This document shows, piece by piece, positions 4,534 through 52,077 of a stretch of 64,000 bases of DNA. This DNA comes from a bacterium (GTDB lineage Bacteria; Pseudomonadota; Alphaproteobacteria; Rs-D84; CACZYB01). The notes under the pieces were generated by a model that made no database searches, had not been told where the DNA came from, and saw only the letters and a list, made by a program, of their open reading frames with translations. Where the stretch lies: the NCBI GenBank assembly GCA_014803575.1, contig JAAVBO010000003.1:87165-151164 (forward strand). The letters are read 5' to 3'. The first letter of the stretch is position 1. Every line of letters starts with the position of its first letter. A program made the position numbers and the translations under genes.

Positions 4534-4545
4534 TCCCCTTTTTTA
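4521..4545. terminator. Bidirectional terminator between convergent genes
   Basis: gggg-aatagt-cccc hairpin followed by a T-run. Confidence 0.5.
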
Positions 4546-5502: not shown

Positions 5503-5534
5503 TTTATTTCCTTTTAAGTTATTAAATAAAAAAA

Positions 5535-5558
5535 GGACTAGTGTAGATACACTAGTCC
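5535..5558. promoter_or_regulatory. Perfect 24-bp palindrome (candidate operator) in a divergent intergenic region
   Basis: GGACTAGTGTA-GA-TACACTAGTCC lies between the divergent genes 4543..5502(-) and 5861..7309(+). Confidence 0.4.
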
Positions 5559-5860
5559 CATTGGTTAAAAAACACCATACCATAATTTAAAGAAGGATTT
5601 ATTAAAAGATAAGGACCTTGTACTATATATTGAAAAATAAGGTCAAAAATAAGGACCGTTTTTTTCTATCGGTCTATAAATCCTATTATATATTAAAATA
5701 GGAAATAATACAAATAAAAAAATATGTTATCATCTATTTGATAATACAGAAATATTTTAATTTGATTGTCTTTTTTATATAAATTTTCCATTTACAACAA
5801 AAACAGCAAATAAAAAACGGTCGTTTAAATTGAACAATTAATGAAATAAAAGGAGATAAA

Positions 5861-12386: not shown

Positions 12387-12389
12387 AAT

Positions 12390-16642: not shown

Positions 16643-16908
16643 AAATACCGAATATGAGTTTTAGGTTATATCGTTTTTTGTGGGTGAGGTGTATGCCTGT
16701 TGAGCTTATTACTATGACAGTTTTTAGAATCCAAATTCTTACGTAGTAGGATTTGTGTTTAAGTTTTATTTTTTCCTTTGTTCGATATTCAGAACCGTCC
16801 GGATTTTCGATTTCTGTGCTTTTCCCGAAACCGTATTTGTTGTTGTCAAAGTCCAAACCGTATTCAATATATATCATAAATTTATGATACTATAAATTAT
16901 AGGTTGTA

Positions 16909-17172
16909 TCAAGAATTATTTTCCAATTCTTTGTCTACCTCGCTCATATAACGACTGAAAGTTTCCCAGTCCATATTAGTGACTTTTAGAACTTTGCAAA
17001 TACTTTCACTTGATGGCCAACGACATTTTCCGCTTGGGTAGAAACGCTTGCTTTTGTTAAATGCAGTTGCATCTAAGCCCGCTTTTTTTGCCAGTGCGGA
17101 AACTGATAATCCGTTTATGTATGCTATTTTATCAATTACTTTCCATATTTTGGAATGTTCTTTGTTCATCAT
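16909..17172 (-). CDS. Small HTH DNA-binding protein (Ner/Nlp-like)
   Basis: LSVSALAKKAGLDATAF...WPS resembles the Ner/Nlp family pattern. Confidence 0.3.
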   Translation of the reverse strand: MMNKEHSKIWKVIDKIAYINGLSVSALAKKAGLDATAFNKSKRFYPSGKCRWPSSESICKVLKVTNMDWETFSRYMSEVDKELENNS

Positions 17173-25503: not shown

Positions 25504-25625
25504 TTAATTATAATTAACGTTTTTTTGATACATATAATTTATATCTGAAATTTATGTATGTCAATAAAGTCTCAACATTTATTTCTCAATAAAATTAATC
25601 AAAAAAACGTCTCCCTTTTTTTTTG
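25504..25625 (-). promoter_or_regulatory. Intergenic module, copy 1 (inverted relative to copies 2 and 3), with TTGACA-N17-TAAATT oriented toward the Slam gene
   Basis: On the minus strand the -35 is at 25564-25559 and the -10 at 25541-25536; the Slam start codon is at 25503. The reverse complement of this region aligns with 27064-27184. Arm sequences are degenerate (aacgttttttt / aaaaaaacgtc). Confidence 0.5.
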
Positions 25626-27035: not shown

Positions 27036-27063
27036 ATTAATTTCCTTTCAGTTTTTTATATTA

Positions 27064-27184
27064 GTCAAAAAAAAGGTACGTTTAAATTGACCGATTTTAT
27101 TAAAAAATAAACATTAGGATTTTATTGACATACACGAAATTAGGATATAAATTATATATGTCAAAAAAAAACGTACCTTTTTTT
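27064..27184 (+). promoter_or_regulatory. Intergenic module, copy 2: 16-bp inverted-repeat arms flanking a TTGACA-N17-TAAATT promoter that currently points antisense
   Basis: The arms are aaaaaaaaggtacgttt (27067-27083) and aaaaaaaaacgtaccttttttt (27163-27184). The -35 is at 27125-27130 and the -10 at 27148-27153, both on the plus strand. Confidence 0.5.
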
Positions 27185-27226
27185 ATCACTTTATTACTGA
27201 ATGAAACTACTCCTTATTTGTTAAAG

Positions 27227-28738
27227 TTATTTACGTTTTGCTCCGAAGACTGATTCAAACATATATTCTGTTCCTTCAATCTCATCGCGGAGATGTAATC
27301 TTCCAACAACTTCTTCTAATTCATTCATATCACCATAATACTCATCTTCAATGAAGTGATCTCTCTGATTGAAATCTATTTCTTTAAATTTATTAAAATC
27401 TCCATATATGTCATCTCCCGTTAATGTAATTTGACCATTGTTATAGTTGACATCATAGAAATTATCAAATTTAAGATTTAAATTTTTATTTAGGGAATCA
27501 TCTTTGAATGAAACGGTTAAATCAGCATTTCCATTAAGTATGAGTGCATTTTTACCTTCGATACTAGCGGTACCAATAGCTTTTCCTGTAAATGATATTT
27601 CATTATTATCGTTTAATACATACACAAGCTCATCTTTGGATGCGATAAGTTTTTCTTTGTATCCGCCAAAGAAAACATCAGAAGTTTCTGTATGAGGTAA
27701 TTCAACATTATTATCAGGATTATTGGATAGTGGACGGTTTGCCGATAATATTGTTTTATATAATGATCCAAAGTCAGAGTATGATAGTCCAACGGATTTT
27801 CCCCCAAGGATTATTTTATATTGATAATTGATATCAACTCCATCATCTTTTATATCACTAGAATCATATTCATTATCATCACTAATTTTATTTGCAAAAT
27901 CAATTAATCCTGTGTCTTTATCATAAACATAATATTTATAAGATTCCGTTTGATTTTTTTCTCCTATAATAAAGCCGTTTTTATCTTCTTTGAAATCATT
28001 AATATCAAAATCTATTGTTAAGTCTGTATCAAATTCATCTGATGGATTATTACGTTCATTATGTTCATAATGCATTCCTGTGACTTTATTATCCTTCACT
28101 GTATACTTAAATATGTTACGAGTTGTTGCATATTGATCATCTTTATTATCGGATAATTCTACAGTTGCAAGAGAAAATGTTTCTAATGTAGCTTGTTTTT
28201 TAATATCCTCGACATCTCCTGATATATCACCAATAGTTTCAAAAGTTGATTTTATGTTGTCATCTGTTAACTTTTCTACTATATCGTTTTTGTTTATAAG
28301 TTTTAGGGCATCAATAAATTTTTGTTTGTTTTCCCTTAAAACTTCTTCTGATTGGTCAGCCAAATTTTCAAGGACATCTTTCAATTCGTCGACATAACTT
28401 AATTTTACTTGGGCTATGCGATATTTTTTTTCGGCATCAGTCAAATTTTGGGATGAAACTTTTGCATTTGAAGTTGCACTTCTGTTTGGATTGTTTTTAT
28501 GAATTGCTTCGTATTTAGAAGCTACTTCTTCTGTGTATTCGGCGACATCTATTTTACCAAGATGTCCTTCAACATAATCAATAATATCTGATTTATTATC
28601 TACACTTGTTTTCATAGCGGTTATAGTTTCTGCACGTGGTAAAGTTGTATTTGGAACGGAGTTTCCACTTCCACCACCACCGCAAGCAGTAAGTAAAGTT
28701 GATAGAGCAATTAAGCTTATTTTTAAATTGTTTTTCAT
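27227..28738 (-). CDS. Putative surface lipoprotein, paralog 2
   Basis: The true start is MKNNLKISLIALSTLLTAC at 28738; the ORF-track start at 28837 runs through the upstream module. The protein ends in SVFGAKRK and has a KFDNFYDV motif. Confidence 0.55.
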   Translation of the reverse strand: MKNNLKISLIALSTLLTACGGGGSGNSVPNTTLPRAETITAMKTSVDNKSDIIDYVEGHLGKIDVAEYTEEVASKYEAIHKNNPNRSATSNAKVSSQNLTDAEKKYRIAQVKLSYVDELKDVLENLADQSEEVLRENKQKFIDALKLINKNDIVEKLTDDNIKSTFETIGDISGDVEDIKKQATLETFSLATVELSDNKDDQYATTRNIFKYTVKDNKVTGMHYEHNERNNPSDEFDTDLTIDFDINDFKEDKNGFIIGEKNQTESYKYYVYDKDTGLIDFANKISDDNEYDSSDIKDDGVDINYQYKIILGGKSVGLSYSDFGSLYKTILSANRPLSNNPDNNVELPHTETSDVFFGGYKEKLIASKDELVYVLNDNNEISFTGKAIGTASIEGKNALILNGNADLTVSFKDDSLNKNLNLKFDNFYDVNYNNGQITLTGDDIYGDFNKFKEIDFNQRDHFIEDEYYGDMNELEEVVGRLHLRDEIEGTEYMFESVFGAKRK

Positions 28739-28766
28739 TTTGTTTCCTTTCAGTTTTTTTATATTA

Positions 28767-28886
28767 GTCAAAAAAAAGGAACGTTTAAATTGACCTATTG
28801 TATTGAAAATAAATATTAGGATTTTATTGACATACACGAATTTAGAATGTAAATTATATATGTCAAAAAAAAACGTTCCTTTTTTT
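28767..28886 (+). promoter_or_regulatory. Intergenic module, copy 3: arms with a compensatory T-to-A change and the same antisense-pointing promoter
   Basis: The arms are aaaaaaaaggaacgttt and aaaaaaaaacgttccttttttt (ggaacg/cgttcc, versus ggtacg/cgtacc in copy 2). The -35 is at 28827-28832 and the -10 at 28850-28855. About 90% identical to copy 2 over ~170 bp. Confidence 0.5.
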
Positions 28887-28900
28887 ATTACTGAATGAAA

Positions 28901-30001
28901 CTAGTCTCTTTTCAATCCAAATGCGGCGTTGAAGTCAATGATGGAAATTCCAGGTCTGTTTTCATCTTTGAAATCATTACCTGTATATTCTTCACCATCT
29001 CTCATAGCTTCTATGATTTCCATACCGCCACCGGCTTCAACAACTGTGTTTGTTAAATCATCATAATAGTAGTTAAGTGTAAAATTATTTAGTCCGCCGA
29101 GAGCATTTTTTTCTTCGCCGTTTTTAAATTTGAAAAGGTCATCTTCTCCTGTGAATTTTTCAAATTTTACATTAACATCAGATTCACCAAATTTGTCAGT
29201 AACAACTACATCATACCAATTATCAAAATTCATTGTTAAAGTAGATGTTGGGTTTGCTCCATTGTCAAAATGAAGTGTTGCTTTACCGTCAAGATTTATA
29301 TTACCTTCTTTGGAACCTTGATTTGCAATGTTTTCTTCGGCACTTACTCCTCCAATTGCTCTACCGGTAAAGTCAATAGATGCGATGTCTTTTTCAATTT
29401 TATCCGGAGAAATTTCTCTTTCTTTATATCCGCCGAACACACCTAATTGATATTCATCTAAGTCATCACTTTCTTCTTTTGGTATATACTTACCGTTTTC
29501 ATCAGTACCATATTCAATAGATTTACCATTTAGGCGGAAGAAGTCAAAATAACTTAAACCAAGTTCTTTTCCCATTGATTCAAAGGTTAGTTCTTGATAC
29601 ATCTCATGATCTCCTTCTGGACCATCATAGATAAATTTATTTTCATTATTTCTTTTAAATACTGTTTCTCCGTTTTCATCAGAAAAAGATACAATTTTTC
29701 CATTATCATCTACGTTGAATTTAAAACTCGAATTTTCACCTTCATCAAATACAGTAAATTTTATGTCGCTGATATCAGCATATTGTTTAGCACGTGATGT
29801 TGATGTAGCGGATCTTACGCTTTCGGGTTTTTCCTTTGTAAGGTCAATACGACTTTTCAAAGATGTTATTTGTCTGTTGGATGCTTCGACAGTAGTAGGC
29901 AAAGTTGTGTTTGGAACGGAGTTTCCGCCACCATTACCACCACCGCAAGCGGTAAGTAAAGTTGATAGAGCAATTAAGCTTATTTTCAAATTATTTTTCA
30001 T
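28901..30001 (-). CDS. Putative surface lipoprotein, paralog 3
   Basis: The same MKNNLKISLIALSTLLTACGGGNGGGNSVPNTTLP N-terminus, a C-terminal MNFDNWYDV motif, and an ending AAFGLKRD. Confidence 0.5.
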   Translation of the reverse strand: MKNNLKISLIALSTLLTACGGGNGGGNSVPNTTLPTTVEASNRQITSLKSRIDLTKEKPESVRSATSTSRAKQYADISDIKFTVFDEGENSSFKFNVDDNGKIVSFSDENGETVFKRNNENKFIYDGPEGDHEMYQELTFESMGKELGLSYFDFFRLNGKSIEYGTDENGKYIPKEESDDLDEYQLGVFGGYKEREISPDKIEKDIASIDFTGRAIGGVSAEENIANQGSKEGNINLDGKATLHFDNGANPTSTLTMNFDNWYDVVVTDKFGESDVNVKFEKFTGEDDLFKFKNGEEKNALGGLNNFTLNYYYDDLTNTVVEAGGGMEIIEAMRDGEEYTGNDFKDENRPGISIIDFNAAFGLKRD

Positions 30002-30047
30002 AGTAATTTCCTTTCATTAGTTTATTATTATTTACTTTGTGTTAAAT

Positions 30048-31607
30048 TTATTGACGTTTCGCACCGAAGACATATTCTAAACTTGTGTTTATTTTACCTT
30101 CCTTATCTTTATATTCTATAATTCCACCACCAACTGCTTCTGTTGGAGAGTGTGCATTTTCACCATAAAGATTTACAAAACTTGATTGATTTGTTGAATT
30201 ATTAAGCATATCAATAATCATTTGATTTTCTAAACTTCCTATATTATCGTAAAATTTAGAATCTTCTATTTTGTTATATCTTATATCATATCCTCCACTT
30301 ATAAAATGTCCATCTGGGGCAATTGTAGTATTTGGTGAATATACTACTTCTTCTTCATATTTTGGAGTAATATTCATACTAATTCCGTTGTCCCAATTAA
30401 CATTTAAAGATGTTGTTGTGTTCATATTTGAAAAATGAACATTTAAAGATGTATCTCCTTGTAAAAATTTATCTATTCCAGATACATTTAAATTACCGTA
30501 TGCTTTACCTTTAAATGTTACATCTCCTAATTCATAAGATTTACTTATATCATAGAATGGAAATAATAAAGCACTTTGATTTTTTTCATTAAATCTGTTT
30601 TGATTTGTATTATATCCAAGTGTTGCCAGATAATGGTTTGACGATTTATTATTATCAACTTGGATATAAGTAAAATCAGCGTATGATAATCCTACGGATG
30701 TTCCTCCTAAAATAATTTTGTAATTATTTTTATCATCAGATGTTTTTATTATTTTATTCCCATCTTCATCTATTATATCATCTTTGTTAAAAGTTATGGT
30801 TTTATTTGTTATATCAGAGTTAAATGACAAACTATATATATCTCCATTACTGTCAGTATTATATTTTAAAGTAAAACTTTCATCATCTCTTAATGGAGTA
30901 AACTGTAATTGATCTATACTTATGTCTTTATAATTATTTTCAATAAAATCAAGTCGTTTTGTATAGTATGAGGGATCAAATGCGTAAATAGTTGCATTTT
31001 TATTTAAATTTATAGTATCTACTATCATTTCAACACTATTTGAATACTTTATGAAATTATTCATGTCATCTTCTGTTATTATTTTTCCATATTTAGTTTC
31101 ATATAAATATTTAGTAACCCTATTTTGAAAATCAACCATTCCAAGAAAAGCTTCACTATAAATTGTATTAAAATAAACATAATTATAAAGAAATTCGTTG
31201 ATAAAATTTTCATCATTTTTTGATATTTCTTCTAATTGTTCTAATCCATTATCTTCTAATGCTATTTCGACATGTTTTCTAATATAGTTTATATTATCTA
31301 TTAATTTTTTAGTTATTGTATCTATTATTTCATCTTCTGATAATGAATTGTACTTATCATCTTTAATTAAAATATCATAAGTATTTTTATCCAAGAGTTC
31401 ATCGTGAACATTTTGGAACCATGTAGAATTTTTTACAGTTTGAAAAGCATTAGAATTTGATTTTATTGAAATCTTTGCTGAATTTGTATCAGAAATTGTC
31501 GGTAAATTTGTATTTGGAATAGAACTTCCGTCACCACTTCCACCACCACCGCAAGCAGTAAGTAGGGTTGATAGAGCAATTAGGCTTATTTTAAAATTGA
31601 TTCTCAT
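30048..31607 (-). CDS. Putative surface lipoprotein, paralog 4 (first gene of the array)
   Basis: MRINFKISLIALSTLLTACGGGGSGDGSSIPNTNLP N-terminus and an ending YVFGAKRQ. It lies 46 bp upstream of paralog 3. Confidence 0.5.
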   Translation of the reverse strand: MRINFKISLIALSTLLTACGGGGSGDGSSIPNTNLPTISDTNSAKISIKSNSNAFQTVKNSTWFQNVHDELLDKNTYDILIKDDKYNSLSEDEIIDTITKKLIDNINYIRKHVEIALEDNGLEQLEEISKNDENFINEFLYNYVYFNTIYSEAFLGMVDFQNRVTKYLYETKYGKIITEDDMNNFIKYSNSVEMIVDTINLNKNATIYAFDPSYYTKRLDFIENNYKDISIDQLQFTPLRDDESFTLKYNTDSNGDIYSLSFNSDITNKTITFNKDDIIDEDGNKIIKTSDDKNNYKIILGGTSVGLSYADFTYIQVDNNKSSNHYLATLGYNTNQNRFNEKNQSALLFPFYDISKSYELGDVTFKGKAYGNLNVSGIDKFLQGDTSLNVHFSNMNTTTSLNVNWDNGISMNITPKYEEEVVYSPNTTIAPDGHFISGGYDIRYNKIEDSKFYDNIGSLENQMIIDMLNNSTNQSSFVNLYGENAHSPTEAVGGGIIEYKDKEGKINTSLEYVFGAKRQ

Positions 31608-31856: not shown

Positions 31857-33116
31857 TTATTGATATCTTAATGCTTCGATTGGGTCCAGTTTGGTTGCCT
31901 TTATTGCAGGGAAAAGTCCGGAGGATATGCCTACAATAATTGCGACAGAAAAACTTATGATTACGGTTATTAATGATATAGGTACATTTTTATCTAAGAC
32001 TGCGCCTGCGATTTGTGACAGGGCTATACCTATAATCATACCTATCATACTTCCTATGAAAGATATAAGTATGGATTCCGTTAAAAATTGTCCCATAATG
32101 GAGCTGTTTTTTGCACCTATTGCCTTTCTAATACCTATTTCCCTTGTTCGTTCGGTGACGGAAACAAGCATCATATTCATAATACCTATACTTCCAACGA
32201 TAAGAGAAATTGAGGCTATGGAGGCAAGAAGGATTGAAAGGTAAGTTCCGACGGAGCGCATAGTTTCTTGGATTTCGGTCATATTATCAATACGAAAATC
32301 ATTTTCAGCGGTTGGTTTTAATCGTCTTGATTCACGAAGAGCATTTTCAATTAGTTTTGTTGCGCGTTCCATATTATTTTCGTTATCTACCTGTGCCATT
32401 ATGTAGTTTACTCGGTTAGGAATGTTTGTTCCCTGAACACGGCGACGATAGGTTGTTATCGGCATAAGGACTATATCATCTTGGTCCATACCGCCCATAC
32501 CTTGACCTTTGGATTTAAGGATACCCTTTACAATGAATGGAACATTTTTTATTCGCATAGTTTTTCCAAGTGGATTTTCGTCGTGGAAAAGTTCATCTGC
32601 GATAGTTTTTCCTATTACTATGTAAGAAGATGCTGCCTTTACATCGCGGTCGGTGAACATAGCCCCTTTTTCAATTTCCCAGTTGCCGGTGTACAGGTAG
32701 TCTGGGGTAGTTGCGACTATGGAGCCGGCGTAGTTTTCATTTCCGTAGACTAGCTGTCCTGCACCATTTACCATAGGAGAGACAGCTGATATGTGCTTTA
32801 TGTTTTTTATAACGTCGGCGTCATTGGTTTTTATTATAGTCATACCGGAACCCTTTACACCGGAAGTTGCGACAAATTCCGGACGAATGATTAGTAGGTT
32901 ACTTCCCATTCCGGCAAGACTTTCATTTATCATATTTGACACGGTTTGACCTGCGGCAACCATTATAACTACGGCACAAACTCCTATAATAATACCTAGG
33001 GTTGTAAGAAATGAGCGGAGTTTGTTTGCCTTTATTGAAATCCATGATTCACGGAATACTGCCTCTGCCATATGTGTTTTTTTGTTATCGGTTGCTATTT
33101 TTGTGTTGCAAGTCAT
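31857..33116 (-). CDS. ABC transporter permease, MacB/FtsX-type (large periplasmic domain plus a C-terminal FtsX 4-TM bundle)
   Basis: One N-terminal TM, a ~220-aa periplasmic region, then three C-terminal TMs ending ...KATKLDPIEALRYQ. Typical MacB/LolCE topology. Confidence 0.8.
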   Translation of the reverse strand: MTCNTKIATDNKKTHMAEAVFRESWISIKANKLRSFLTTLGIIIGVCAVVIMVAAGQTVSNMINESLAGMGSNLLIIRPEFVATSGVKGSGMTIIKTNDADVIKNIKHISAVSPMVNGAGQLVYGNENYAGSIVATTPDYLYTGNWEIEKGAMFTDRDVKAASSYIVIGKTIADELFHDENPLGKTMRIKNVPFIVKGILKSKGQGMGGMDQDDIVLMPITTYRRRVQGTNIPNRVNYIMAQVDNENNMERATKLIENALRESRRLKPTAENDFRIDNMTEIQETMRSVGTYLSILLASIASISLIVGSIGIMNMMLVSVTERTREIGIRKAIGAKNSSIMGQFLTESILISFIGSMIGMIIGIALSQIAGAVLDKNVPISLITVIISFSVAIIVGISSGLFPAIKATKLDPIEALRYQ

Positions 33117-33826
33117 TATCTTTTCCCCTTAAATTCAGAAACTTTACCATCGTAGTGAAGAACGCCGTCAAGTATGTAGATAAGGCGGTCGGCATAATTT
33201 GCAATATCCGGTTCGTGGGTGACAAGGACAATGGTTTTTCCTTCTTTATTTAAAGAAGTAAACAAGTCCATTATTTCAATGGAAGTTTTTGTATCCAAAT
33301 TTCCGGTTGGTTCGTCGGCAAGAATTAAAGTAGGTTCGTTGATTAGTGCTCTTGCAATTGCAACACGTTGTTGCATACCACCGGATATTTGATTTGGAAA
33401 TCGGTCGGTAAATTTTCCAAGTCCTACATGTTCCAGCATATTTTTTGCCTTTTCATGTTGGCAAGTAAGGTTGTATCCCGAATAAATCAGTGGAATACAA
33501 ACGTTATCAAGCAGAGTTCTTTTCATAAGAAGATTGAACCCTTGAAATACAAAGCCGATTTTTTTATTTCTTATTTCAGCAAGTTGGTCATCGTTCATAG
33601 ATGATACAATTTGCTCATCAATTTCATATATACCTGATGTTGGTTTATCAAGACAGCCTAGTGTATTCATAAGTGTGGATTTACCACTTCCCGATGGACC
33701 CATAATAGCAACGAATTCACCTTCGTTGATTGTGAAATTGATATCCTTTAATACCGGATATGAATTACCTCCATCCATAAAGTAGGTTTTATATAGATTT
33801 TTTACTTCTATGACTTTTTTTGCCAT
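33116..33826 (-). CDS. ABC transporter ATP-binding protein (MacB/LolD-type)
   Basis: Walker A GPSGSGKST, signature ISGGMQQRVAIARAL, Walker B LILADEPTGNLD, and H-loop VTHE. The start is probably MAKKVIEV at 33826. Confidence 0.9.
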   Translation of the reverse strand: MAKKVIEVKNLYKTYFMDGGNSYPVLKDINFTINEGEFVAIMGPSGSGKSTLMNTLGCLDKPTSGIYEIDEQIVSSMNDDQLAEIRNKKIGFVFQGFNLLMKRTLLDNVCIPLIYSGYNLTCQHEKAKNMLEHVGLGKFTDRFPNQISGGMQQRVAIARALINEPTLILADEPTGNLDTKTSIEIMDLFTSLNKEGKTIVLVTHEPDIANYADRLIYILDGVLHYDGKVSEFKGKR

Positions 33827-33836
33827 ATTGGTTTTC

Positions 33837-35066
33837 CTATCTGCGTCTTCCGCCACCAGGTCCGCCAACTCTTATTGCAGGAGTTGCTTTGGAGCTTTTT
33901 GCGGTTCCATTGTAGTTAAACTCCGAAATTACAAAGTCATTTTCGTTTAGTTCGTCGGAAATTATTTCTGTTATGCTTCCGTTTGTGATACCTTTTTTTA
34001 TTTTGATTGCATTTAGTGTTTTTGATTCATCATCGTAGGTATAAACGAAACCTTCACCGGCACCTAATCTTGAATTTTCCGGATAGATAACTTTATCTCG
34101 CAAAACGTCTTCCGGTTTGAATTGAAGGGTTATGTTATCAAGGATTTTTACATCGTTTTTTTCTTGTGTATTAATTTCAACGAATGCAGTCATTCCAGGG
34201 AGAAGTTTGTTATCCTTGTTATCAATTTTTATTATAACTGTGTAGATAACGACATTTTGTTCTGTTGTTGGGTTAAGGCGGATTTGGTCAACGTAACCTT
34301 TGAATGTTTCAAGTGGGAATGCGTCGACAGTAAAATCAACAGATTGTCCTTTTTTGATTGTTCCTATGTCGGCCTCGGAAATGCTTGCTTCTATTTGCAT
34401 TTTCTTTAAATCTTCGGCAATTGTAAATAATGTTGGAGCGGAGAATGATGAGGCTATGGTTTGACCTTCCTCGACATCTCTTGAAATAATGACACCTGAT
34501 ACAGGAGAGGTTATTCTTGTATAATCCATATTTCGCTTACTTCTTTCCAAATCGGAAGTTGCAGAGGTGTAGTCGGCTTTGGCAGTAGTGAGTTCTGTTT
34601 CTGCCTGATCAAGTTCAACCTTTGCTATGTAGCCGGCATTGTAGAGTTGTTCAATTCTTTCCTTATTCAATTTTGCGAGTTCGTATTTTGCCTTTGCTTG
34701 AGTTTGTCTTGCTTGAGAAGCGTTTACATCTTCTACGAACAAAGATTTATCAACCTCAGCAAGTAATTGACCGATTTTTACATTGTCATTATAGTCTGCG
34801 TAGATTTTATCGATAATGCCAGATACTTGGGCACCGACACTTACAACATTGACTGGATTGACTATGCCTGTTGCACTTACCTTTGATTTTACATCACCTT
34901 TTGTAATTTTAGAAAATTCAAAATTGTTTGGTTTTAATTTTAATTCAGAGGGAGTTGAAAACAAAATTTTTTTACCAATTAACAATATTACGCATATTAA
35001 AATTATGTAAAAAATTCTTTTTTTCCAGTTGGCTTTTTTTCCAGCTGTGTTATTTGTTGTTTCCAC
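33837..35066 (-). CDS. Periplasmic adaptor (membrane fusion protein, HlyD/MacA family)
   Basis: An N-terminal TM, coiled-coil hairpin regions and a beta-barrel/lipoyl pattern typical of MFPs. Confidence 0.75.
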   Translation of the reverse strand: METTNNTAGKKANWKKRIFYIILICVILLIGKKILFSTPSELKLKPNNFEFSKITKGDVKSKVSATGIVNPVNVVSVGAQVSGIIDKIYADYNDNVKIGQLLAEVDKSLFVEDVNASQARQTQAKAKYELAKLNKERIEQLYNAGYIAKVELDQAETELTTAKADYTSATSDLERSKRNMDYTRITSPVSGVIISRDVEEGQTIASSFSAPTLFTIAEDLKKMQIEASISEADIGTIKKGQSVDFTVDAFPLETFKGYVDQIRLNPTTEQNVVIYTVIIKIDNKDNKLLPGMTAFVEINTQEKNDVKILDNITLQFKPEDVLRDKVIYPENSRLGAGEGFVYTYDDESKTLNAIKIKKGITNGSITEIISDELNENDFVISEFNYNGTAKSSKATPAIRVGGPGGGRRR

Positions 35067-35083
35067 TTTTATCCCTCCTTTTG

Positions 35084-36460
35084 TTATTGTAATGAACCTA
35101 AGTTTTTAAGGTTTAAATCACCTGCGGCTTTAAGTAGTGCAATTTTTGCAGTATATAAATCATATTGTGCAGAAATTGATTGTTTTCTTGCTGAAACAAG
35201 TTTTGATTGTGCTTCCATAAGGCTGATGATGTCGCCTTTACCTGCTTGGTATGAACCGAGAGCAACCTGTTCATTTTCGTTTGCACTTTCAAGCATTTTT
35301 GTTGCAAGTTCAACGCTCTTTATACTTGTTTTGTAATCGTTGTATGCGTTGACTATGTTTAATTCTATGTCTTGTTTTAATTGTTGTAGAGCTTCTTTTT
35401 CGGCAGCATATGAATATTTTGCATTTCTAAGAGAGTAAGTGTGTTCGAATCCCGTGAATATAGGAAGAGAAACTCTTACACCTATTGCATCGCTTTCTCT
35501 ATCTCTTTTTATGCCACCAAAGTCAATGTCTTCGTCATACCAGTTTTTGTTTGCGAAACCGGAAATTGTTGGAAAGTATGCTGCGCTTGCCTGTCTTACC
35601 TTTGCATAAGAGGCCTTTACATCAGCAATTTTTGCCATTAAATCAGGACGTTTTTCCATTGCAATGTCTATTATTTCATCAACAGATTTTGAGATGAGTT
35701 CGTTGGTTGTATTTGCATAAGAAGTAACAAGTTTTATATCCATACTTGGTGGAAGACCAAGAAGTTTTGCAAGGTTTGCCTTTGCAAGACGAACGGCTTG
35801 CTCCTGTTTAACGGTATCAAGTTGACGTTGAATGTAGGTTGTTTCTGTTTGAAGAGTATCTGCCTTTGATGACATACCTAGTTCAAATTTTTTGAATGCA
35901 AGTTCAAATGATTTTTTACTTGCTTCCTCATCGGCCTTAACTGCAGCGAGTTCTTCAATAGAAGAAAGAGCGTTATAGTATGCAGAAATTACGTTATATG
36001 CAACGGTTTGCAATGTATTGTTGTATTGGAAATTCATAGAGTTCATAGTTTGGAAAGTTTGTTCAACCTGTGCTTCACGATTTCCGAAATCATATAATAA
36101 CCAATTTAAAGATAGACCGGCACTTAAATCCTTACCGTTTGTTTCAACCGGTGGTATACCTGTGTAATCTTCATTATTACTGTCTTGATATGTTGCGGTT
36201 GCATCGATTTGAGGATAGTATGATGCGTATGAACGTTTGTATGCGGTTGAGCCGACCTTTGTATTTAACCATGCTTGTCTTGTTTCAGGGTTATTGCACA
36301 TTGAAAGTTCAATAACATCTGCAAGATTAAGTTCATCGGTTTCAACATTTTTTGAAATGTTGCAAGATTTACTTATTTCAAATGTTGATTTTTCCAATGT
36401 TTCGGCATTTGCTATTGTTGATATAAATAAAGTTGATAGTAATAATATAATTTTTTTCAT
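35084..36460 (-). CDS. TolC-family outer-membrane efflux protein
   Basis: Signal peptide and the two repeated halves of the TolC/OEP fold with long helical segments. 458 aa. Confidence 0.8.
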   Translation of the reverse strand: MKKIILLLSTLFISTIANAETLEKSTFEISKSCNISKNVETDELNLADVIELSMCNNPETRQAWLNTKVGSTAYKRSYASYYPQIDATATYQDSNNEDYTGIPPVETNGKDLSAGLSLNWLLYDFGNREAQVEQTFQTMNSMNFQYNNTLQTVAYNVISAYYNALSSIEELAAVKADEEASKKSFELAFKKFELGMSSKADTLQTETTYIQRQLDTVKQEQAVRLAKANLAKLLGLPPSMDIKLVTSYANTTNELISKSVDEIIDIAMEKRPDLMAKIADVKASYAKVRQASAAYFPTISGFANKNWYDEDIDFGGIKRDRESDAIGVRVSLPIFTGFEHTYSLRNAKYSYAAEKEALQQLKQDIELNIVNAYNDYKTSIKSVELATKMLESANENEQVALGSYQAGKGDIISLMEAQSKLVSARKQSISAQYDLYTAKIALLKAAGDLNLKNLGSLQ

Positions 36461-36581
36461 TGTAGTACTCCTTAAAATATTGTTTCAGTATATCAATAAA
36501 TATTAAGAGAGTCAATTTATTTATGATATATTTCTGCTGTCTAAACATATACAAATGTATAATTGTTTTTAAGAAGGTTAT

Positions 36582-36610
36582 AAAAAAAACTCCTCGTAAA
36601 GAGGAGTTTT
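36582..36610. terminator. Terminator downstream of the LysM gene, upstream of the TolC operon
   Basis: ctcctc-gtaaa-gaggag hairpin with flanking A and T runs. Confidence 0.55.
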
Positions 36611-36626
36611 CAGAGGTATTATATTA

Positions 36627-37841
36627 TTATTTTTTCTTTACTGATTTTTTCTTTTCAATGATTGCTTTTTCTTTTAGTTCAGTAAATTTTTCACTGTTCT
36701 TTTTTACCATTGTGAATACTTGACCAACATAGATTTTGTTTGGATCTTTGATTTGTGATTTGTTTGCTTCAAAGATAACAACATAGTTTGTTCCTTTGCC
36801 GTATTCTTTTAGGGCTAAGTTCCATAGGCAGTCGCCTTTTTTAACAACAACCATAGAATTTTCGCCGTCGATAAGAACAGGTGTGAATTTGTATTCAACG
36901 CGTTTTGCAACTTTGCCTTTTGAATTTAACATATCGGCACGAACTGTTTGTTTTTCATCGGATAGTTCGTAAGTTGTGTCAACAGACCAGTTTCCATTTT
37001 TATCCGATGTTGTTGTAGCGATAAGTTTGTTGTTCATATAAAGGTTGATTTTTGTATTCTTTTTAGCTTTACCTTCTGTGTAGAAGTTGCCTTTTTCATT
37101 ATAATCAATCTTTTCAATACGAAGAGCACCTATGTTTTGTCCCTTTGGAGCTTTTAAAACTTTGGAGTTTTTATTGTCGCCCATAAGGACAGCAACATCT
37201 TCGTTTGATTTTTTAGATACGTGAAGAACTGCGGATTGTTTGCTTTTAATTTTTTCACCGTTGTCATTTAAAACATAAAGTGAAAGTTTTCTGTTTCCGA
37301 CAGGAAGAGCTTTCTTTGGTATAAATACCCATTGTCCGTTTTCATCGGCAGTTTCTGTTCCGATTTCGTGATCGTTGTCAAGGATGTGGACTATGTCACC
37401 GGCTTTTGCTTGACCTGCGATAACGGCTTCACCTTTTTCCATGCGGACTATGTCAAATGAAGGATAGATGATTTCATTTTTCTTTTCTTCTGATTTAGAG
37501 AAAAGTTTTGACCACCAGCTTTGTTTTGTTTCTTTTTTGGTTACTTGTTTTTCAACCTTTGCAGGTTCAAGTGTTGCAACATTTGCTTTGTCTTTGTTGA
37601 AAATAGATATAACCCATATCATAATTGCAATTATTATAACAAAGATTACAAGTGCGACTATGAATTTTTTCTGTTTATCAGACATTTTTGTTTCTTTTAC
37701 TTTTTTATATTTTGCTTTTACTTTTTCCTTAAAAGAAGTTTTTTGTTTTTGAGACTTTGTTGCAACTTCTTTTTTTTCTTCTGTTTTTGGTGCAGAAGTT
37801 TGTGTGTCAGTTGTGTTTAAAATAGGTTCTTTTTTTTCCAT
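36627..37841 (-). CDS. LysM-domain membrane protein with Ig-like repeats
   Basis: Lys/Glu-rich N-terminus, one TM helix, the repeated motifs DENGQWVF / DKNGNWSV, and a C-terminal LysM (VVKKGDCLWNLALKEYG...IYVGQVF). Confidence 0.55.
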   Translation of the reverse strand: MEKKEPILNTTDTQTSAPKTEEKKEVATKSQKQKTSFKEKVKAKYKKVKETKMSDKQKKFIVALVIFVIIIAIMIWVISIFNKDKANVATLEPAKVEKQVTKKETKQSWWSKLFSKSEEKKNEIIYPSFDIVRMEKGEAVIAGQAKAGDIVHILDNDHEIGTETADENGQWVFIPKKALPVGNRKLSLYVLNDNGEKIKSKQSAVLHVSKKSNEDVAVLMGDNKNSKVLKAPKGQNIGALRIEKIDYNEKGNFYTEGKAKKNTKINLYMNNKLIATTTSDKNGNWSVDTTYELSDEKQTVRADMLNSKGKVAKRVEYKFTPVLIDGENSMVVVKKGDCLWNLALKEYGKGTNYVVIFEANKSQIKDPNKIYVGQVFTMVKKNSEKFTELKEKAIIEKKKSVKKK

Positions 37842-44255: not shown

Positions 44256-44916
44256 TTACTTTGCACCCATACTTGAAAGCTCTGATTTCTCATCATTATT
44301 ATTGGCTTTCACAAAGCCGTAATCAAAGAAAATGCTTGGGCTGAAATCACGCAAAAGTATATTCTGACTTTTAAAAATATCGCTCATGCTAAACTTCAAA
44401 TCGTTCCTTATGTAAAAACCGCTGTCCCCCGGTAATACCATCATTGCTAAATCCACGAACGGAGGCCTCACTTCCAATATAAAATCCGTCGGAGGAGAAA
44501 AGTTCATCACGGCTGTATTGCCCGTCAAATGTAGTTGCCAAATTTACAAAACCGAAATTAAATTCCTTGTCAATATAGGCGTTTGTGATAGTGTTAAGAA
44601 GTTTGTTTATCTCATCTACGGTCAAGCATTTATTAAGAAAAGGTTTTGCAAGTTTGTTGATTTCGCCAGAGGAAAGTTTTGTATTCCCATCAAATTCAAT
44701 GCTGTTGATTTGAACGCAGTGTGATGATTTTTGAGGGGCAGTTTCCTCCTGTTGTTGAGGTTGTTGTGTTACGGGTTTTGTGATTGCTCGTTCAAGCTCC
44801 TGCCTTCTAAATCCCGCATCAATTAATTGTTGTTGTGAACGTTGAATTTGTTCAGGAGTTTGCGAAAACACTACCCTCGCACAGAATACAAAAATAACTA
44901 AAAATACCTTTTTCAT
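44256..44916 (-). pseudogene. Remnant of a TpsB (ShlB/FhaC-type) two-partner-secretion transporter, truncated and frameshifted
   Basis: Signal peptide plus a POTRA-like region (VQINSIEFDGNTKLSSGEINKLAKPFLNKCLTVDEINKL). Only ~260 aa span two frames. No TpsA gene is nearby. Confidence 0.45.
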
Positions 44917-45297
44917 AATGGGAAAATTATACTATTTGCGATTTTTAATGCAAGGGGAAAATTGAAAGTAAATCGGTATTTATATTTTGTTCTTGACTTT
45001 TTGGAGAAAATGTAGTATTTATATATAAATCGTGAATAATAAATGAAAATAAAGCTTCGTAATGTGTGTATTGAATTTTATTGATATTAAAACTTTTGTT
45101 AATATCTCAACTCCACTTGTAATAAATTGTTTACAAGAAATGAAAGGAGAAATTATGGGAATATTAATGAGAAGTGTAGAGTTGTACCTATTGCTGTGGA
45201 GTATATGATATTTACATATATTTTAATATCTTTTTCTTTATATACATAGAAGAGTCAATAGGAGATAATTTTATATTATCTGACTCCACACCATTTT

Positions 45298-49012: not shown

Positions 49013-49192
49013 GAAAGACTATGTTTGAAATGTTTTAAAAATTAATGATTGTTCTAATTTTGTTCTTGACTTTTTTACAAAAATAGTGTATAGTATTTTC
49101 TGACTAATGGGATAAGTCTCTCTCCACTATTAGTTATTGATTTTTTAATTTTAATACTCACATCTCTGTGGGTATTTTTTCTATTTAAAGGA

Positions 49193-49384
49193 GTGATAAT
49201 GAAAAAAATATTTGAATTTTTATTAACTGCACTTAAAAAGTGTTTTGTGAAACCTGATGGTCAAATAGGACTTAAACGAATATTGGGAACTTTGTTGGTT
49301 TTAAGTTATATCGGTGTTTCCATATATACAAATTCGTTTGAAAATCCGGTTGCAATATTAACCTTATTATTTTCAGGAGTGTAA
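49193..49384 (+). CDS. Small membrane protein, holin-like
   Basis: 63 aa with two hydrophobic segments, lying immediately upstream of the spanin-like and endolysin genes. Confidence 0.3.
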   Translation: MIMKKIFEFLLTALKKCFVKPDGQIGLKRILGTLLVLSYIGVSIYTNSFENPVAILTLLFSGV

Positions 49385-49386
49385 AT

Positions 49387-49578
49387 ATGAAGAAAGTTTA
49401 TTGTATTATGGCTGGGATTTTGGGAACCCTGCTTGTTTATTTTAAAGGAGAAGAAAATGGCGTGTCGAAACAAAAAGCAAAGCAAACTAAAAAAATTCTT
49501 AAAAAAGTTAATGCGAAAACTAAAATTAAAACTCGTGTTAATAATGTTGGTGTTGACAAGTTGCACTACCGAGATTGA
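49387..49578 (+). CDS. i-spanin-like protein (N-terminal TM plus a Lys-rich periplasmic segment)
   Basis: MKKVYCIMAGILGTLLVYF TM helix followed by a charged segment. The putative lipoprotein gene overlaps its 3' end in the +1 frame. Confidence 0.25.
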   Translation: MKKVYCIMAGILGTLLVYFKGEENGVSKQKAKQTKKILKKVNAKTKIKTRVNNVGVDKLHYRD

Positions 49579-49687
49579 TAGTTTTTGTTCCATATATGAA
49601 CCTATACTTCCAAGCAGACAGGATACTTTGGAAACTTCGCGTCATCTTAATCTTTATTATGAAATTTATGTGAGTGAATGCAAATGA
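49511..49687 (+). CDS. o-spanin-like small lipoprotein overlapping the i-spanin-like gene
   Basis: MRKLKLKLVLIMLVLTSC has lipobox LTSC. The ORF overlaps the 49387 gene out of frame (Rz/Rz1-like arrangement), and its stop overlaps the endolysin start (ATGCAAATGA). Confidence 0.3.
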   Translation: MRKLKLKLVLIMLVLTSCTTEIDSFCSIYEPILPSRQDTLETSRHLNLYYEIYVSECK

Positions 49688-50094
49688 ATTCTTTGATAAA
49701 AAAGTATGAGGGATGTTTCCTTGTTGCCTATAAATGTCCGGCCGGTGTTTGGACTATTGGTTATGGAAATACAAATGTTGATGGAGTGCCTGTTTATGAA
49801 GGAATGAGTATTACACAGGATAGAGCGGAGGTACTTCTTTCTGAATGGATAGAAAATGAAGTTAAGCCATACATTTCCGACCTTAATTTAAAAGGAAAAC
49901 AGCTTGAAGCTATAATTTCCCTTGTTTATAATGTTGGAGGTCCGGCATTTAAAAAATCCAAACTTAGACAGGCAATACTTAACAAAGATTATGAGTCCGT
50001 GTGTCGCGAATGGGATTTTGGTTTTAAATCCAATCTTAAAGGTATATATAAAAGAAGGGTTGAAGAACTTTTTCTTTTCATAAGTGAAATATAA
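49678..50094 (+). CDS. Phage-type lysozyme (GH24 endolysin)
   Basis: YEGCFLVAYKCPAGVWTIGYGNT ... LVYNVGGPAFKKSKLRQAILNKDYESVCREW. A Cys occupies the position of the conserved second catalytic Asp (YKC versus YKD). Confidence 0.75.
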   Translation: MQMNSLIKKYEGCFLVAYKCPAGVWTIGYGNTNVDGVPVYEGMSITQDRAEVLLSEWIENEVKPYISDLNLKGKQLEAIISLVYNVGGPAFKKSKLRQAILNKDYESVCREWDFGFKSNLKGIYKRRVEELFLFISEI

Positions 50095-50095
50095 T

Positions 50096-50128
50096 CTCTC
50101 CCCATCATCATAGGTGGGGAGTTTTTTT
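50096..50128 (+). terminator. Terminator after the endolysin gene
   Basis: ctcccca-tcatcatagg-tggggag followed by a T7 run. Confidence 0.6.
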
Positions 50129-50150: not shown

Positions 50151-50987
50151 ATGACAAAGATATTAAAAAGGATAGAAGATTTAATGCTATCCGATGCTTA
50201 TACAAACTTATCAAATCCTAAACATAAAGAAGTAACGGATGAGGTAAGCAAGTATTTCAAAGAGAATTTTAAAGATGGTCCAAATAGCAAAAAGAAATAT
50301 AAGTGGGTATGTGGTCCAAAAGATAATTGTGGATATTGTGCATTATTAAACGGGAAGATGTTGGATAATATGGAAGATTTTGAGGTATGTCCTCCAGTTC
50401 ATCCTAATTGTAAATGTGAGATTATAGAGGTATGGGTTGAGGAAGAGGATGATGAGGAAATAAAAATTAGTGATAAAGGTATAGAATTTTTGAAAGAACA
50501 AGAAGGCAGTATAACTTATCAAAAGAAAATAGGATCGTATAAAGATGGGATGTTTCGTGTATATAAAGATAATGCTGGATATGATACTATTGGATACGGA
50601 CATAAATTAAAAGAAAATGAAAAAAATAGAGGAGTTTTCAAGAATGGTATTACAGAAGAAGAAGCAGAAAAACTGTTACTTAAAGATTACCAAGTTGCTA
50701 TTGATGATTATAATAAATATATAAAAAGAAAAGACTATACTCAAAATCAAGTTGACGCAATTTTATCTTTCTTGTATAATGCAGGAGGTGGTGTCAATGT
50801 TGGAAAATCCAATACTGTATACTTATTAAAAAATAAATTAGATAAACATCCTGTCAGTAAGAAGATATTGGAAAAAGAATTTAAGGAATGGAATACATCA
50901 GATGGAGAATATAATGATGTTTTAAACAAAAGGAGAAATGCAGAATGGGAATTATTTACAAAGGGAAAATACAAAGTAAAAAAATAA
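50151..50987 (+). CDS. Fusion of a MuF-like Cys-motif module to a GH24 lysozyme (paralog of 4543..5502); no signal peptide
   Basis: CGYCALLNGKML...VCPPVHPNCKCEI, then FLKEQEG...VYKDNAGYDTIGYGHKL and ILSFLYNAGGG lysozyme motifs. Confidence 0.55.
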   Translation: MTKILKRIEDLMLSDAYTNLSNPKHKEVTDEVSKYFKENFKDGPNSKKKYKWVCGPKDNCGYCALLNGKMLDNMEDFEVCPPVHPNCKCEIIEVWVEEEDDEEIKISDKGIEFLKEQEGSITYQKKIGSYKDGMFRVYKDNAGYDTIGYGHKLKENEKNRGVFKNGITEEEAEKLLLKDYQVAIDDYNKYIKRKDYTQNQVDAILSFLYNAGGGVNVGKSNTVYLLKNKLDKHPVSKKILEKEFKEWNTSDGEYNDVLNKRRNAEWELFTKGKYKVKK

Positions 50988-51469
50988 TAATTTTTGTATT
51001 ACTACTTATAATTTCTTCTGTCTCAGTAAAAGCTGAAGACTGTAAAGAAGAGGATTATGATAGATTTTTTAATTTTATAGAAAAAAAAGTCTATTGCGAT
51101 TTGGAAGGTGATGGTAACGGTTGGGATAAATTATGTAATGATCAAATAAATTGTTATGGCTTAGGAGCGGGGGCAATAGATTGTATTGGAACAGAATTAA
51201 AAGCTTGTGATAAACTATTGAATGAAGAATATCAGAAAGCAATGGAACGAGCAAAAGAGTATGATGATTGTGAAAGAGATAAACCTTATGGTAAAAAATG
51301 CCATTGGGAACGTTTAAAACAAGCAGAACTTAGTTGGATAAAATTTAGAGATGAAGATTGTGAAGTTGATGTTAATTTTTACGCAAGTGTTAGTAGTCTT
51401 GATATTGTTGTTTGTCGTAGAGAAAAAACAAAAGAAAGAATAAAACAATTAAGACAGTTTTTTAAATAA
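50945..51469 (+). CDS. Periplasmic DUF1311 / LprI-like (lysozyme-inhibitor family) protein
   Basis: Signal peptide, then CDKLLNEEYQKAMERAK ... LKQAELSWIKFRDEDCE, matching the DUF1311 pattern L..aQraW..yRD..C as I recall it. The start overlaps the preceding gene by 43 nt. Confidence 0.5.
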   Translation: MGIIYKGKIQSKKIIIFVLLLIISSVSVKAEDCKEEDYDRFFNFIEKKVYCDLEGDGNGWDKLCNDQINCYGLGAGAIDCIGTELKACDKLLNEEYQKAMERAKEYDDCERDKPYGKKCHWERLKQAELSWIKFRDEDCEVDVNFYASVSSLDIVVCRREKTKERIKQLRQFFK

Positions 51470-51546
51470 AATTTTCATCAAATCAAATAGGCAATGACAG
51501 AAATAATTGGCGACAAGATAAACTATTATCAATTATAGAATAAAAA

Positions 51547-51566
51547 AAAGGGAGATTACTCTCCTT
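51547..51566. terminator. Bidirectional terminator (ggaga-ttac-tctcc)
   Basis: A hairpin flanked by an A8 run and T-rich sequence, between convergent genes. Confidence 0.5.
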
Positions 51567-52077
51567 TATATCTGTTTGCTGTAACATTAGTCACTTTACA
51601 AAAAGCAGAAAAGGTTTCATGTGTGTAGCAATCATTTTTTATATATTGTTTTTTACCGGGATAATAAATTGCCATTATTATATCATACATATATTTTTCA
51701 GGAGCATTATATAATTTTAGATAAGGTCTGGATGGAGGATATGATGATATATCCCTATTTGCAGAATAATCACATTCAAGGTAAATATATTCATCAGTTA
51801 TGTCATCTATATCACATGTAAAATGTTCAATATGGGAATAATCAAGAAATGTATCAATATTTATTATTTTTATTTTATCATCCATTTTAGTTATTGCTAA
51901 ACTCATTGATTCAGGATCATCTGAAGTATAAACTCCAAAAAAATCATCAATGGATAAAACTTTCTCCTCTTCCGCCCAAACAGGAACAGAAAGAAGCAAA
52001 AATAATATAGCAAAAATCTTTTTCATAAAAATCTCCTTATTATGAATAATGATACCAGAGCAGGGTATTAAATGCAA
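51556..52077 (-). CDS. Hypothetical secreted protein
   Basis: Signal peptide MKKIFAILFLLLSVPVWA; the true start is likely at ~52026. No recognisable domain. Confidence 0.4.
   Translation of the reverse strand: MHLIPCSGIIIHNKEIFMKKIFAILFLLLSVPVWAEEEKVLSIDDFFGVYTSDDPESMSLAITKMDDKIKIINIDTFLDYSHIEHFTCDIDDITDEYIYLECDYSANRDISSYPPSRPYLKLYNAPEKYMYDIIMAIYYPGKKQYIKNDCYTHETFSAFCKVTNVTANRYKGE

Follow-up and report, generated by a model that had tools for sequence, protein, structure and literature searches.

A MuF-core-lysozyme fusion and its overlapping DUF1311/LprI-family gene as a candidate polymorphic toxin-immunity locus of an alphaproteobacterial chromosome

Described systems and how the locus compares

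Proteins of the DUF1311 family have been reported as immunity proteins against lysozyme-like effectors of type VI secretion systems (T6SS) (PMC12135965, PMC12981562); examples are the pair Etse4/Etsi4 of enterohaemorrhagic E. coli, a T6SS lysozyme-like effector with a DUF1311 immunity protein (PMC12981562), and a corresponding pair of Pantoea agglomerans, known here through its citation in PMC12135965. MuF polymorphic toxins reside in prophage head modules, mainly in Firmicutes, and carry nuclease, ADP-ribosyltransferase, peptidase and alarmone synthetase payloads (PMC3482391, PMC5576092). Their description comes from comparative genomics; they have barely been tested, the few members studied (Apk2, Bxa; PMC11699363) all act in the cytoplasm, their packaging into capsids is only predicted, and Jamet et al. 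(2017) nowhere mention lysozyme or peptidoglycan (PMC5576092). Here we describe a locus in which both themes meet. It lies in a stretch of 64,000 nucleotides (the window) of contig JAAVBO010000003.1 from an alphaproteobacterium, and begins with a plus-strand open reading frame (ORF) at 50151..50987, where an earlier note made from the sequence had placed it. The 278-aa product, which we call the effector, consists of a core of the MuF/SPP1-gp7 type (the N-module, residues 1-97), an acidic linker and a GH24 lysozyme domain, and the gene is followed by one for a periplasmic protein of the DUF1311/LprI family (Table 1). We regard it as likely that the two constitute an effector-immunity pair in which the LprI-like protein would inhibit the lysozyme, and the family to which they belong combines the MuF toxin and DUF1311 immunity themes in a reduced chromosomal form that carries murein hydrolases.

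The family shares with MuF polymorphic toxins a conserved MuF-type N-terminus, a variable C-terminal toxic domain, small downstream immunity ORFs and a recombining architecture, and capsid loading is predicted in both. Unlike those toxins, it has only the core of about 97 aa, the 150-200 residues upstream of it being missing; it occupies several chromosomal sites with no portal or terminase neighbours, except in the distant relative P0016 (relatives are given P numbers for proteins and L numbers for loci); its identifiable payloads are only peptidoglycan hydrolases that would act in the periplasm, with secreted immunity proteins; and its hosts are Alphaproteobacteria, not mainly Firmicutes. 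With the T6SS lysozyme-like effectors it has in common a non-Sec muramidase adjacent to a periplasmic DUF1311/LprI-like protein, and with the WHIX effectors a set of mostly peptidoglycan-targeting C-terminal domains, pesticin-like ones included, but no T6SS tag or T6SS gene was found in the effectors, the window or the flanks, and the carrier is a phage head-protein domain. Pesticin with Pim and the SOS-controlled colicin operons are similar in having a toxin derived from a phage lysozyme, periplasmic immunity, an SOS promoter (putative here) and a lysis function in the same unit; the present family differs from them in that no receptor-binding or translocation domain is recognisable, in that the lysis function is a full phage lysis cassette and not a small lipoprotein, and in being chromosomal and multi-copy, not plasmid-borne. 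In phage T4, the tail lysozyme gp5 is neutralised in the periplasm by Spackle. A particle-borne lysozyme with a periplasmic inhibitor from the resident genome is likewise proposed here, but the two systems have no sequence relationship, the carrier is a head-protein domain and not a baseplate hub, and the genes here lie outside a phage. The LprI/DUF1311 protein of Mycobacterium tuberculosis (PF07007; PDB 3gi7) belongs to the same domain family and is also secreted; however, it is a lipoprotein, whereas the present one has a signal of the signal peptidase I type and an extra Cys-rich N-terminal region, and its presumed target is a bacterial GH24 enzyme, not host lysozyme. Finally, the contact-dependent inhibition systems (CdiA-CT/CdiI) and Rhs proteins offer a parallel in the fixed exchange junction, the joint replacement of tip and immunity gene and the orphan immunity genes downstream, to which the sister locus L225 adds an orphan C-terminal domain; they have another carrier and secretion route, and the junction here is the acidic linker after a strand ending in IIEV, not VENN or PxxxxDPxGL.

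The locus thus compared would offer a compact, testable system for asking which part of MuF is enough to load a cargo and into which compartment that cargo is delivered. It brings at least four unrelated candidate families of muramidase inhibitors (LprI-like, lipocalin-like and two others) together with their predicted cognate enzymes, and would bring low-GC Alphaproteobacteria from metagenomes, which are poorly known, into the field of cell-wall warfare between bacteria or between phage and host.

Effector, partner gene and cassette exchange

The Pfam profile Phage_lysozyme (PF00959) matched residues 136-265 of the effector with an E-value of 2.2e-21 and 76.9 bits against a cut-off of 22.3, and the GH24 domain was found to belong to the T4/P22-lysozyme fold. 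In the alignment of GH24 domains (A2) the catalytic D140 is invariant and E118 and T146 are nearly so; their spacing, E-x21-D-x5-T as compared with the canonical E-x8-D-x5-T, is due to an insertion common to the close relatives. The Glu/Asp/Thr triad is intact, and muramidase activity is predicted. In the N-module, the Cys/His motif C60-G-Y-C63 ... H84-P-N-C87-K-C89 is invariant across the family alignment, and a structure model of the module reached pLDDT values (a per-residue confidence score) of 82-94 over most of its length. The Phage_Mu_F profile (PF04233) aligned residues 4-92 to its positions 20-112 of 112, and TIGR01641 (phageSPP1_gp7) aligned residues 3-94. No hydrophobic N-terminus is present (Kyte-Doolittle maximum of 0.16 with a 15-residue window over the first 25 window starts), and by hydropathy a signal peptide is carried by all of the candidate partners and by none of the effectors. 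The fusion of a MuF-like motif to GH24 without an export signal, as first read from the sequence, was therefore recovered in every part: the ORF, the motif, the PF00959 match and the hydrophilic N-terminus. The description of the MuF part as a zinc motif proved too narrow: the motif is there, but nearly the entire Pfam/TIGRFAM MuF core is covered, not the motif alone.

The effector and LprI genes overlap by 43 nt. The 174-aa product of the second matched Pfam LprI (PF07007) with an E-value of 9.6e-15 and 55.3 bits against a cut-off of 22, and the profile of its family (alignment A3) matched PDB 3gi7, a DUF1311 structure, with an E-value of 2e-4. Its predicted signal peptide MGIIYKGKIQSKKIIIFVLLLIISSVSVKA is followed by ED, with a hydropathy of 3.13 and a cleavage-type site between VKA and ED, and both DUF1311 motifs, CDKLLNEEYQKAM and SWIKFRDEDCE, are found in the protein; the earlier identification of the overlapping gene as encoding a DUF1311/LprI protein with a signal peptide thus holds for the family match, the hydropathy and the quoted motifs alike. 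The close homologues of this protein all adjoin such effectors and stand beside the same GH24 domain. The region's best sigma-70-like match, which falls within the gene for the effector and 165 nt upstream of the start codon of LprI, could let LprI be expressed independently of the effector.

Comparison with locus L003 of a near-identical strain showed how the pair is inherited. Identity between L003 and the window is 95.9% up to base 50454 and 98.3% from base 51496 on, and between these points the window's 1,041 bp (50455..51495) are replaced in L003 by 554 bp encoding a pesticin-like muramidase domain; the LprI gene is absent from this locus, where the C-terminal domain is pesticin-like. The left breakpoint falls at codon 101-102, in the inter-domain linker, and the stretch homologous to the L001 GH24 cassette starts there too, at base 50454. 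The proteins are mosaic in the same way: in the N-module, P0005, whose C-terminus matches Pfam Pesticin, is 83% identical to the window effector and P0002 is 47% identical, against 31% and 76%, respectively, in the C-terminal domain. Because the LprI and GH24 genes overlap and are swapped together as one cassette, we take them to be functionally linked.

Downstream genes were clustered for 11 effector locus instances at four chromosomal sites, each of which holds different cassettes in different strains. A GH24 domain of the window type was followed directly by an overlapping, co-directional LprI-like gene in all five distinct loci (six instances), namely the window locus (locus B), L001, L006, L092 and L093, of which L094 is a duplicate; since the same arrangement recurs in five distinct loci, the adjacency is not due to chance. 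Pesticin-like domains were accompanied by a convergent secreted protein of family 2, here called ConvA (L003, L007), or of family 3 (locus A of the window, see below), and GH108-type domains by family 4 (L011) or by another family (L010). Families 2, 3 and 4 also occur further downstream in the GH24 loci, as orphans. In the window the orphan is ConvA, which is 98% identical to the gene directly after the pesticin-like effector in L003 and for which a structure model of moderate confidence suggests a lipocalin-like barrel. We also considered whether the convergent secreted families are LprI homologues; hhalign aligned their signal peptides only, and families 2/3 and 4 were set down as unrelated to LprI. 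Co-exchange of domain and partner, co-variation of the partners and the orphans together make up the hallmark of polymorphic toxin-immunity loci whose evolution proceeds through the displacement of cassettes. The reading of the locus as an effector-immunity pair, put forward in the earlier note, is supported by comparative genomics through the co-exchange, the domain-specific partners and the LprI homologues beside effectors, and by the DUF1311 precedent. As a side observation, L099 (1926..3765) holds a ConvA homologue (78% identical) followed by two small same-strand genes, with no effector on the contig, and may be an immunity-only array.

A second effector (locus A) lies elsewhere in the window. 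Its motif E-x8-D-x5-T is intact as read in the sequence, and its C-terminus resembles that of P0005. Contrary to the earlier statement that this paralogue has no partner, a convergent secreted gene of a non-LprI family (family 3) was found beside it; the product shows weak similarity to ConvA (E-value 0.006; alignment A5), and its family is also found downstream of effectors in L001 and L093. Upstream, locus A keeps the -10 box and the hairpin described below, without the GTTC repeat. A likely third effector locus of the same organism was seen in L097 (3683..6066), which comes from the same ENA sample as the window's contig; over 3.9 kb the window itself and ENA ERZ27267564 contig k119_64096 show 100% identity. 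The N-module of L097 is 79% identical to that of the window and is fused to a divergent GH24 domain, and after the gene come one for a signal-peptide protein of 164 aa, which belongs to a further family, and a convergent gene for a MORN-like secreted protein.

Table 1. Positions in the window of the features discussed in the text.
Feature	Position	Strand	Basis
Effector N-module, MuF/SPP1-gp7-type core with Cys/His motif, residues 1-97	50151..50441	+	sub-cut-off Pfam/TIGRFAM matches, family profile
Effector GH24 muramidase domain, residues 108-278; catalytic E118, D140, T146	50472..50987	+	
Periplasmic DUF1311/LprI-family protein, 174 aa, candidate immunity for the GH24 domain	50945..51469	+	Pfam, family profile, hydropathy
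Exchangeable cassette, lysozyme domain and LprI gene	50455..51495	+	comparison with L003
Promoter-like site TTGACG, 17-nt spacer, TATAAT, inside effector gene	50752..50780	+	consensus match 11/12
Bidirectional terminator-like hairpin between convergent genes	51548..51567	.	
Secreted lipocalin-like barrel protein (family 2, ConvA), candidate immunity for pesticin-like domains, orphan here	51556..52026	-	
Conserved promoter: GTTC-N7-GTTC overlapping -35 TTGACT, 17-nt spacer, -10 TATAGT	49051..49094	+	promoter scan 10/12
Candidate LexA-box stretch of promoter, GTTCTAATTTTGTTC			
5' leader with two hairpins; second (49153..49176) terminator-like	49100..49176	+	homologous to leader hairpin and U-run at other effector loci
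Holin-like small membrane protein, 61 aa	49199..49384	+	hydrophobic segment, first cassette gene; conserved in L003-L005
Inner-membrane spanin-like protein, 63 aa	49387..49578	+	N-terminal hydrophobic segment; weak PHROG 1026 Rz-like, E 0.0026
Outer-membrane spanin-like lipoprotein, lipobox LTSC	49511..49687	+	PHROG 1275 Rz-like, E 1.8e-8 on ORF 49433..49687
Stand-alone GH24 endolysin, 136 aa, E-x8-C-x5-T, no signal peptide	49684..50094	+	Phage_lysozyme E 1.4e-26; PHROG 7 E 1.5e-37
Intrinsic terminator-like hairpin and U-run, endolysin/effector gap	50098..50121	+	z-score -3.4
Second effector (locus A): truncated N-module (Cys/His part only) and pesticin-like muramidase domain	4543..5502	-	
Convergent secreted protein (family 3), candidate immunity for second effector	4018..4533	+	signal peptide, family in other loci
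Leader hairpin and U-run upstream of second effector	5513..5562	-	homology, covariation

Expression, delivery and competing explanations

The promoter of the window locus contains the repeat GTTCN7GTTC, which is the pattern of a Caulobacter-type SOS/LexA box (PMC9578287), placed over the -35 hexamer. The exact string GTTCN7GTTCTTGAC was found at the window locus as well as in nine related records, which stand for six other distinct loci (L001, L003, L007, L011, L092, L097), upstream of an effector or of a lysis cassette, and suggests LexA binding and SOS control of the promoter. When viral contigs were scanned for GTTCN7GTTCTTGACT, more than 120 scattered hits came up, a number that chance can explain for a pattern of 14 bases. 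Upstream of the lysis cassette, 110 nt are homologous to the region immediately upstream of the effectors at other loci, and this shared promoter-leader element was seen upstream of effectors in L001, L006, L007, L010, L011, L092, L093 and L097. In the common leader an 11-bp hairpin and then a U-run come right before the ribosome-binding site; across nine loci 95.9% of the cells in the hairpin alignment are paired, 5 of the 11 pairs are changed on both sides, and none of 500 shuffles matched this. The element suggests SOS control and/or antitermination. An Rfam search of the whole window returned three tRNAs and no known leader or riboswitch family.

In the window, a lysis cassette (49199..50121) is inserted in this leader, between the shared promoter and the ribosome-binding site of the effector, and no prophage surrounds it; the U-run and ribosome-binding site that follow its terminal hairpin correspond to the leader's 3' end at other effector loci. 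The cassette comprises an endolysin, a spanin pair in which the lipoprotein gene is partly embedded out of frame in the inner-membrane spanin gene, and a small membrane protein upstream, for which no family match was found and to which we assign a holin role from its position and hydrophobicity. It is present in L003 at 96% identity. A second cassette of this type was suspected at 16193..17172 (ORFs of 138, 84 and 87 aa) and rejected, the genes encoding NUDIX, DUF3977 and helix-turn-helix proteins instead. As a separate observation, a 19-nt direct repeat, ATTTTGTTCTTGACTTTTT, at 44981..44999 and 49054..49072 flanks a 4.07-kb island that is absent from L003 and holds an RloB-like gene, an AAA_21/AbiEii-like ATPase gene, a RelB antitoxin gene and small ORFs; the repeat takes in the -35 region of the effector promoter.

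The carrier was traced with a profile of the N-module, which gave 373 matches with E-values of 0.001 or less, 13 of them of 1e-10 or less, among 1.84 billion representative proteins; judged by this search, the family with the module at residue 1 is small and rare. Its identifiable payloads are only GH24, pesticin-like or GH108 domains, the last with or without PG_binding_3, and two payloads were left unclassified (P0060, and P0064 with a DUF2924 end after a weak partial GH108 match). The next tier of matches consists of ordinary MuF proteins that pass PF04233 and carry the module at about residues 150-260; the relatives P0062 and P0063 pass this profile as well (38.8 and 35.8 bits), and 80 viral contigs encode MuF domains whose C-terminal part shares 25-45% identity with the N-module. 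Because its profile retrieves MuF proteins that pass PF04233, we take the N-module to be a genuine MuF core minus the usual upstream region, and in the Pfam/NCBIfam and family profile scans it matched MuF-type profiles only. P0016 is a longer relative (398 aa) with an N-terminal helix motif, the Cys/His motif and a GH24 fusion; its gene occupies the classical position of MuF, directly after genes for terminase and a T7-type portal, and is itself followed by a convergent gene for a family-4-like lipoprotein. The stretch that holds it, L096 1168..5429 (GC content 42%), is phage-like, with a terminase fragment, the T7-type portal gene, P0016 and the convergent lipoprotein gene, and is a possible phage-borne ancestor of the chromosomal pairs. 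In JGI metagenome contigs no relative with an N-module of the window type was found; a scan of the same contigs for a sister subfamily gave 75 loci; the close loci among them hold chromosomal GH108 effectors that have a secreted partner, and the 5-kb stretch around each shows no phage genes. In this subfamily (L222 273..1660, likewise L223-L231) a MuF core is fused to GH108 and PG_binding_3, and the co-directional secreted partner of L222-L231 is a diverged paralogue of the toxin's own GH108 domain (26% identity, E-value 9e-15). L225 also contains, at 12052..12597 downstream, an orphan copy of the C-terminal domain that is 78% identical and lacks the MuF core.

Taken as a whole, a polymorphic toxin family locus with cassette exchange, for which capsids are the most likely vehicle, seems to us a rather probable account. 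The effector, having no export signal, would stay in the cytoplasm of the producer, away from the cell wall, and the periplasmic LprI protein would bind and block the matching muramidase when it arrives from a sibling cell, whereas in cells without the matching inhibitor the murein would be cut. Transfer between cells is proposed because the effector has no way to the wall of its own producer, and only an incoming enzyme would call for a periplasmic inhibitor. New cassettes of C-terminal domain and immunity gene would recombine in at the linker and displace the older immunity genes downstream, of which the orphan ConvA would be an example. Expression would start from the promoter with the LexA-box-like repeat and be gated by the leader terminator, and at the window locus the effector transcript would first cross the holin-spanin-endolysin cassette. 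As to the route, we tentatively favour loading into capsids of a phage or of a gene transfer agent (GTA), which fits because the carrier is homologous to a portal-associated head protein, P0016 has a phage position, the promoter is terminator-gated and a lysis cassette is present. By way of its MuF core the enzyme would be packed into phage or GTA-like capsids whose genes lie in another part of the genome; once the lysis cassette has set these particles free, the enzyme would be ejected into the envelope of the recipient. A more speculative and somewhat doubtful version has the scattered chromosomal genes encode enzymes that ride in capsids, with the minimal MuF core as a loading tag, the inhibitors as marks of kin, a particle regulator timing synthesis and the lysis cassette releasing the particles; the leader terminator would then be read through only with an antiterminator or late regulator of the particle, so that synthesis coincides with capsid assembly.

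Several observations weigh against this account. The effector scored below the cut-offs of both MuF profiles (20.2 against 29.6 bits for PF04233, 21.8 against 39.65 for TIGR01641), and the window module starts at residue 1, without the 150-200 residues that precede the core in real MuF proteins; capsid targeting may have been lost with them. No structural genes of a phage, GTA or T6SS were found in the 64-kb window or in the 6-10 kb flanks of the related chromosomal loci. The relatives are a small set, drawn from metagenome-assembled genomes or metagenome contigs of closely related organisms of a narrow group. The mapping of domains to partners is not strictly one-to-one by Pfam class, and the divergent GH24 domains of P0006, P0013 and P0016 have secreted partners other than LprI; the mapping follows the domain subtype, not the Pfam class. 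GTTC-N7-GTTC is only mildly enriched in the window (3 occurrences against 0.88 expected, with 5 of 100 shuffles reaching 3), and because this enrichment is weak the case for a LexA box is drawn from conservation across loci only, which could itself reflect mere shared ancestry of the promoters.

The explanation that survives best beside a toxin-immunity system is that of a phage-entry enzyme with superinfection exclusion, in which the fusion would open the murein from within the virion, LprI would block phages that use the same enzyme, in the manner of T4 gp5 and Spackle, and the copies would be prophage remnants or domesticated modules. The position of the P0016 gene, directly after terminase and portal genes and before a convergent lipoprotein gene, speaks for it; in proteins delivered by phages, lysozyme domains are believed to open a way through the wall on entry (PMC5512222), a lysis cassette is the neighbour, and a tRNA-Arg gene lies 1.1 kb downstream. 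We nevertheless regard it as unlikely: exclusion needs the inhibitor only, yet intact effectors with catalytic residues stand at two sites of the window and at a third in the same sample, none of them in a prophage; a conserved promoter and leader belong to the effectors themselves; displaced cassettes together with orphan immunity genes are the pattern expected of a toxin locus; and in a tblastn search none of 50,697 GenBank phage records covered at least 80% of the full fusion.

Features of the expression unit bear on a further alternative, a bacteriocin of the pesticin/colicin M type that is induced by DNA damage and released by lysis of a fraction of the cells, after which the free protein would pass the outer membrane of its targets, with the N-module serving receptor binding and translocation and LprI protecting kin in the way that Pim protects against pesticin. 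The LexA-box-like repeat over the -35 hexamer and the lysis cassette between promoter and effector would suit it, as would the pesticin-like domains in the same family, pesticin being a homologue of phage lysozymes with a periplasmic immunity protein (PMC3390615). The N-module, however, is homologous to a phage head protein and to no known receptor-binding or TonB-box domain, the lysis cassette occurs at only one of the four chromosomal sites, and release of particles needs such a cassette equally, so that it does not discriminate between the models; we hold a bacteriocin to be decidedly improbable. That the fusion is an effector of a contact-dependent secretion system encoded elsewhere, a T6SS or another, with the N-module as recognition tag, we consider very unlikely, since the effectors contain no PAAR, VgrG, MIX, WHIX or Rhs domain in Pfam and NCBIfam, no T6SS genes are present in the window or the related flanks, and the tag is a phage head-protein domain. 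It is scarcely credible that the genes are functionally unrelated, with the fusion a spare endolysin of a decayed prophage and LprI a guard against host or environmental lysozyme, for although M. tuberculosis LprI inhibits host lysozyme (cited in PMC12135965 and PMC12981562) and the neighbours form a prophage-like lysis cassette, the genes overlap and are exchanged as one cassette, LprI is absent where the domain is pesticin-like, and its close homologues all adjoin this GH24 domain.

Other genes of the window and of related contigs

Elsewhere the window consists of ordinary chromosome and includes islands of defence and toxin genes. At 44389..44916 on the minus strand lies a 175-aa fragment of a ShlB/TpsB two-partner-secretion transporter, which is 559 aa long in L004 and L005. 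In L003 (617..8286) the ShlB gene adjoins eleven small plus-strand genes, the run ending just before the 3' end of ShlB; several of these encode signal peptides and an Imm32-like gene stands just before, and the run looks like an orphan array of toxin-immunity genes.

Two further gene groups concern the cell envelope. On the minus strand at 24136..31607 the gene for a SLAM-type surface-lipoprotein assembly modifier (PF04575) stands downstream of those for four large proteins (469, 503, 366 and 519 aa) with no Pfam match, which may be its surface-lipoprotein substrates. At 31857..37841, also on the minus strand, a MacB-type permease, an HlyD-type adaptor and a TolC-like outer-membrane protein are encoded beside a LysM/Ig-like-domain protein; no export machinery other than this tripartite exporter was seen in the window, and nothing ties the exporter to the effectors.

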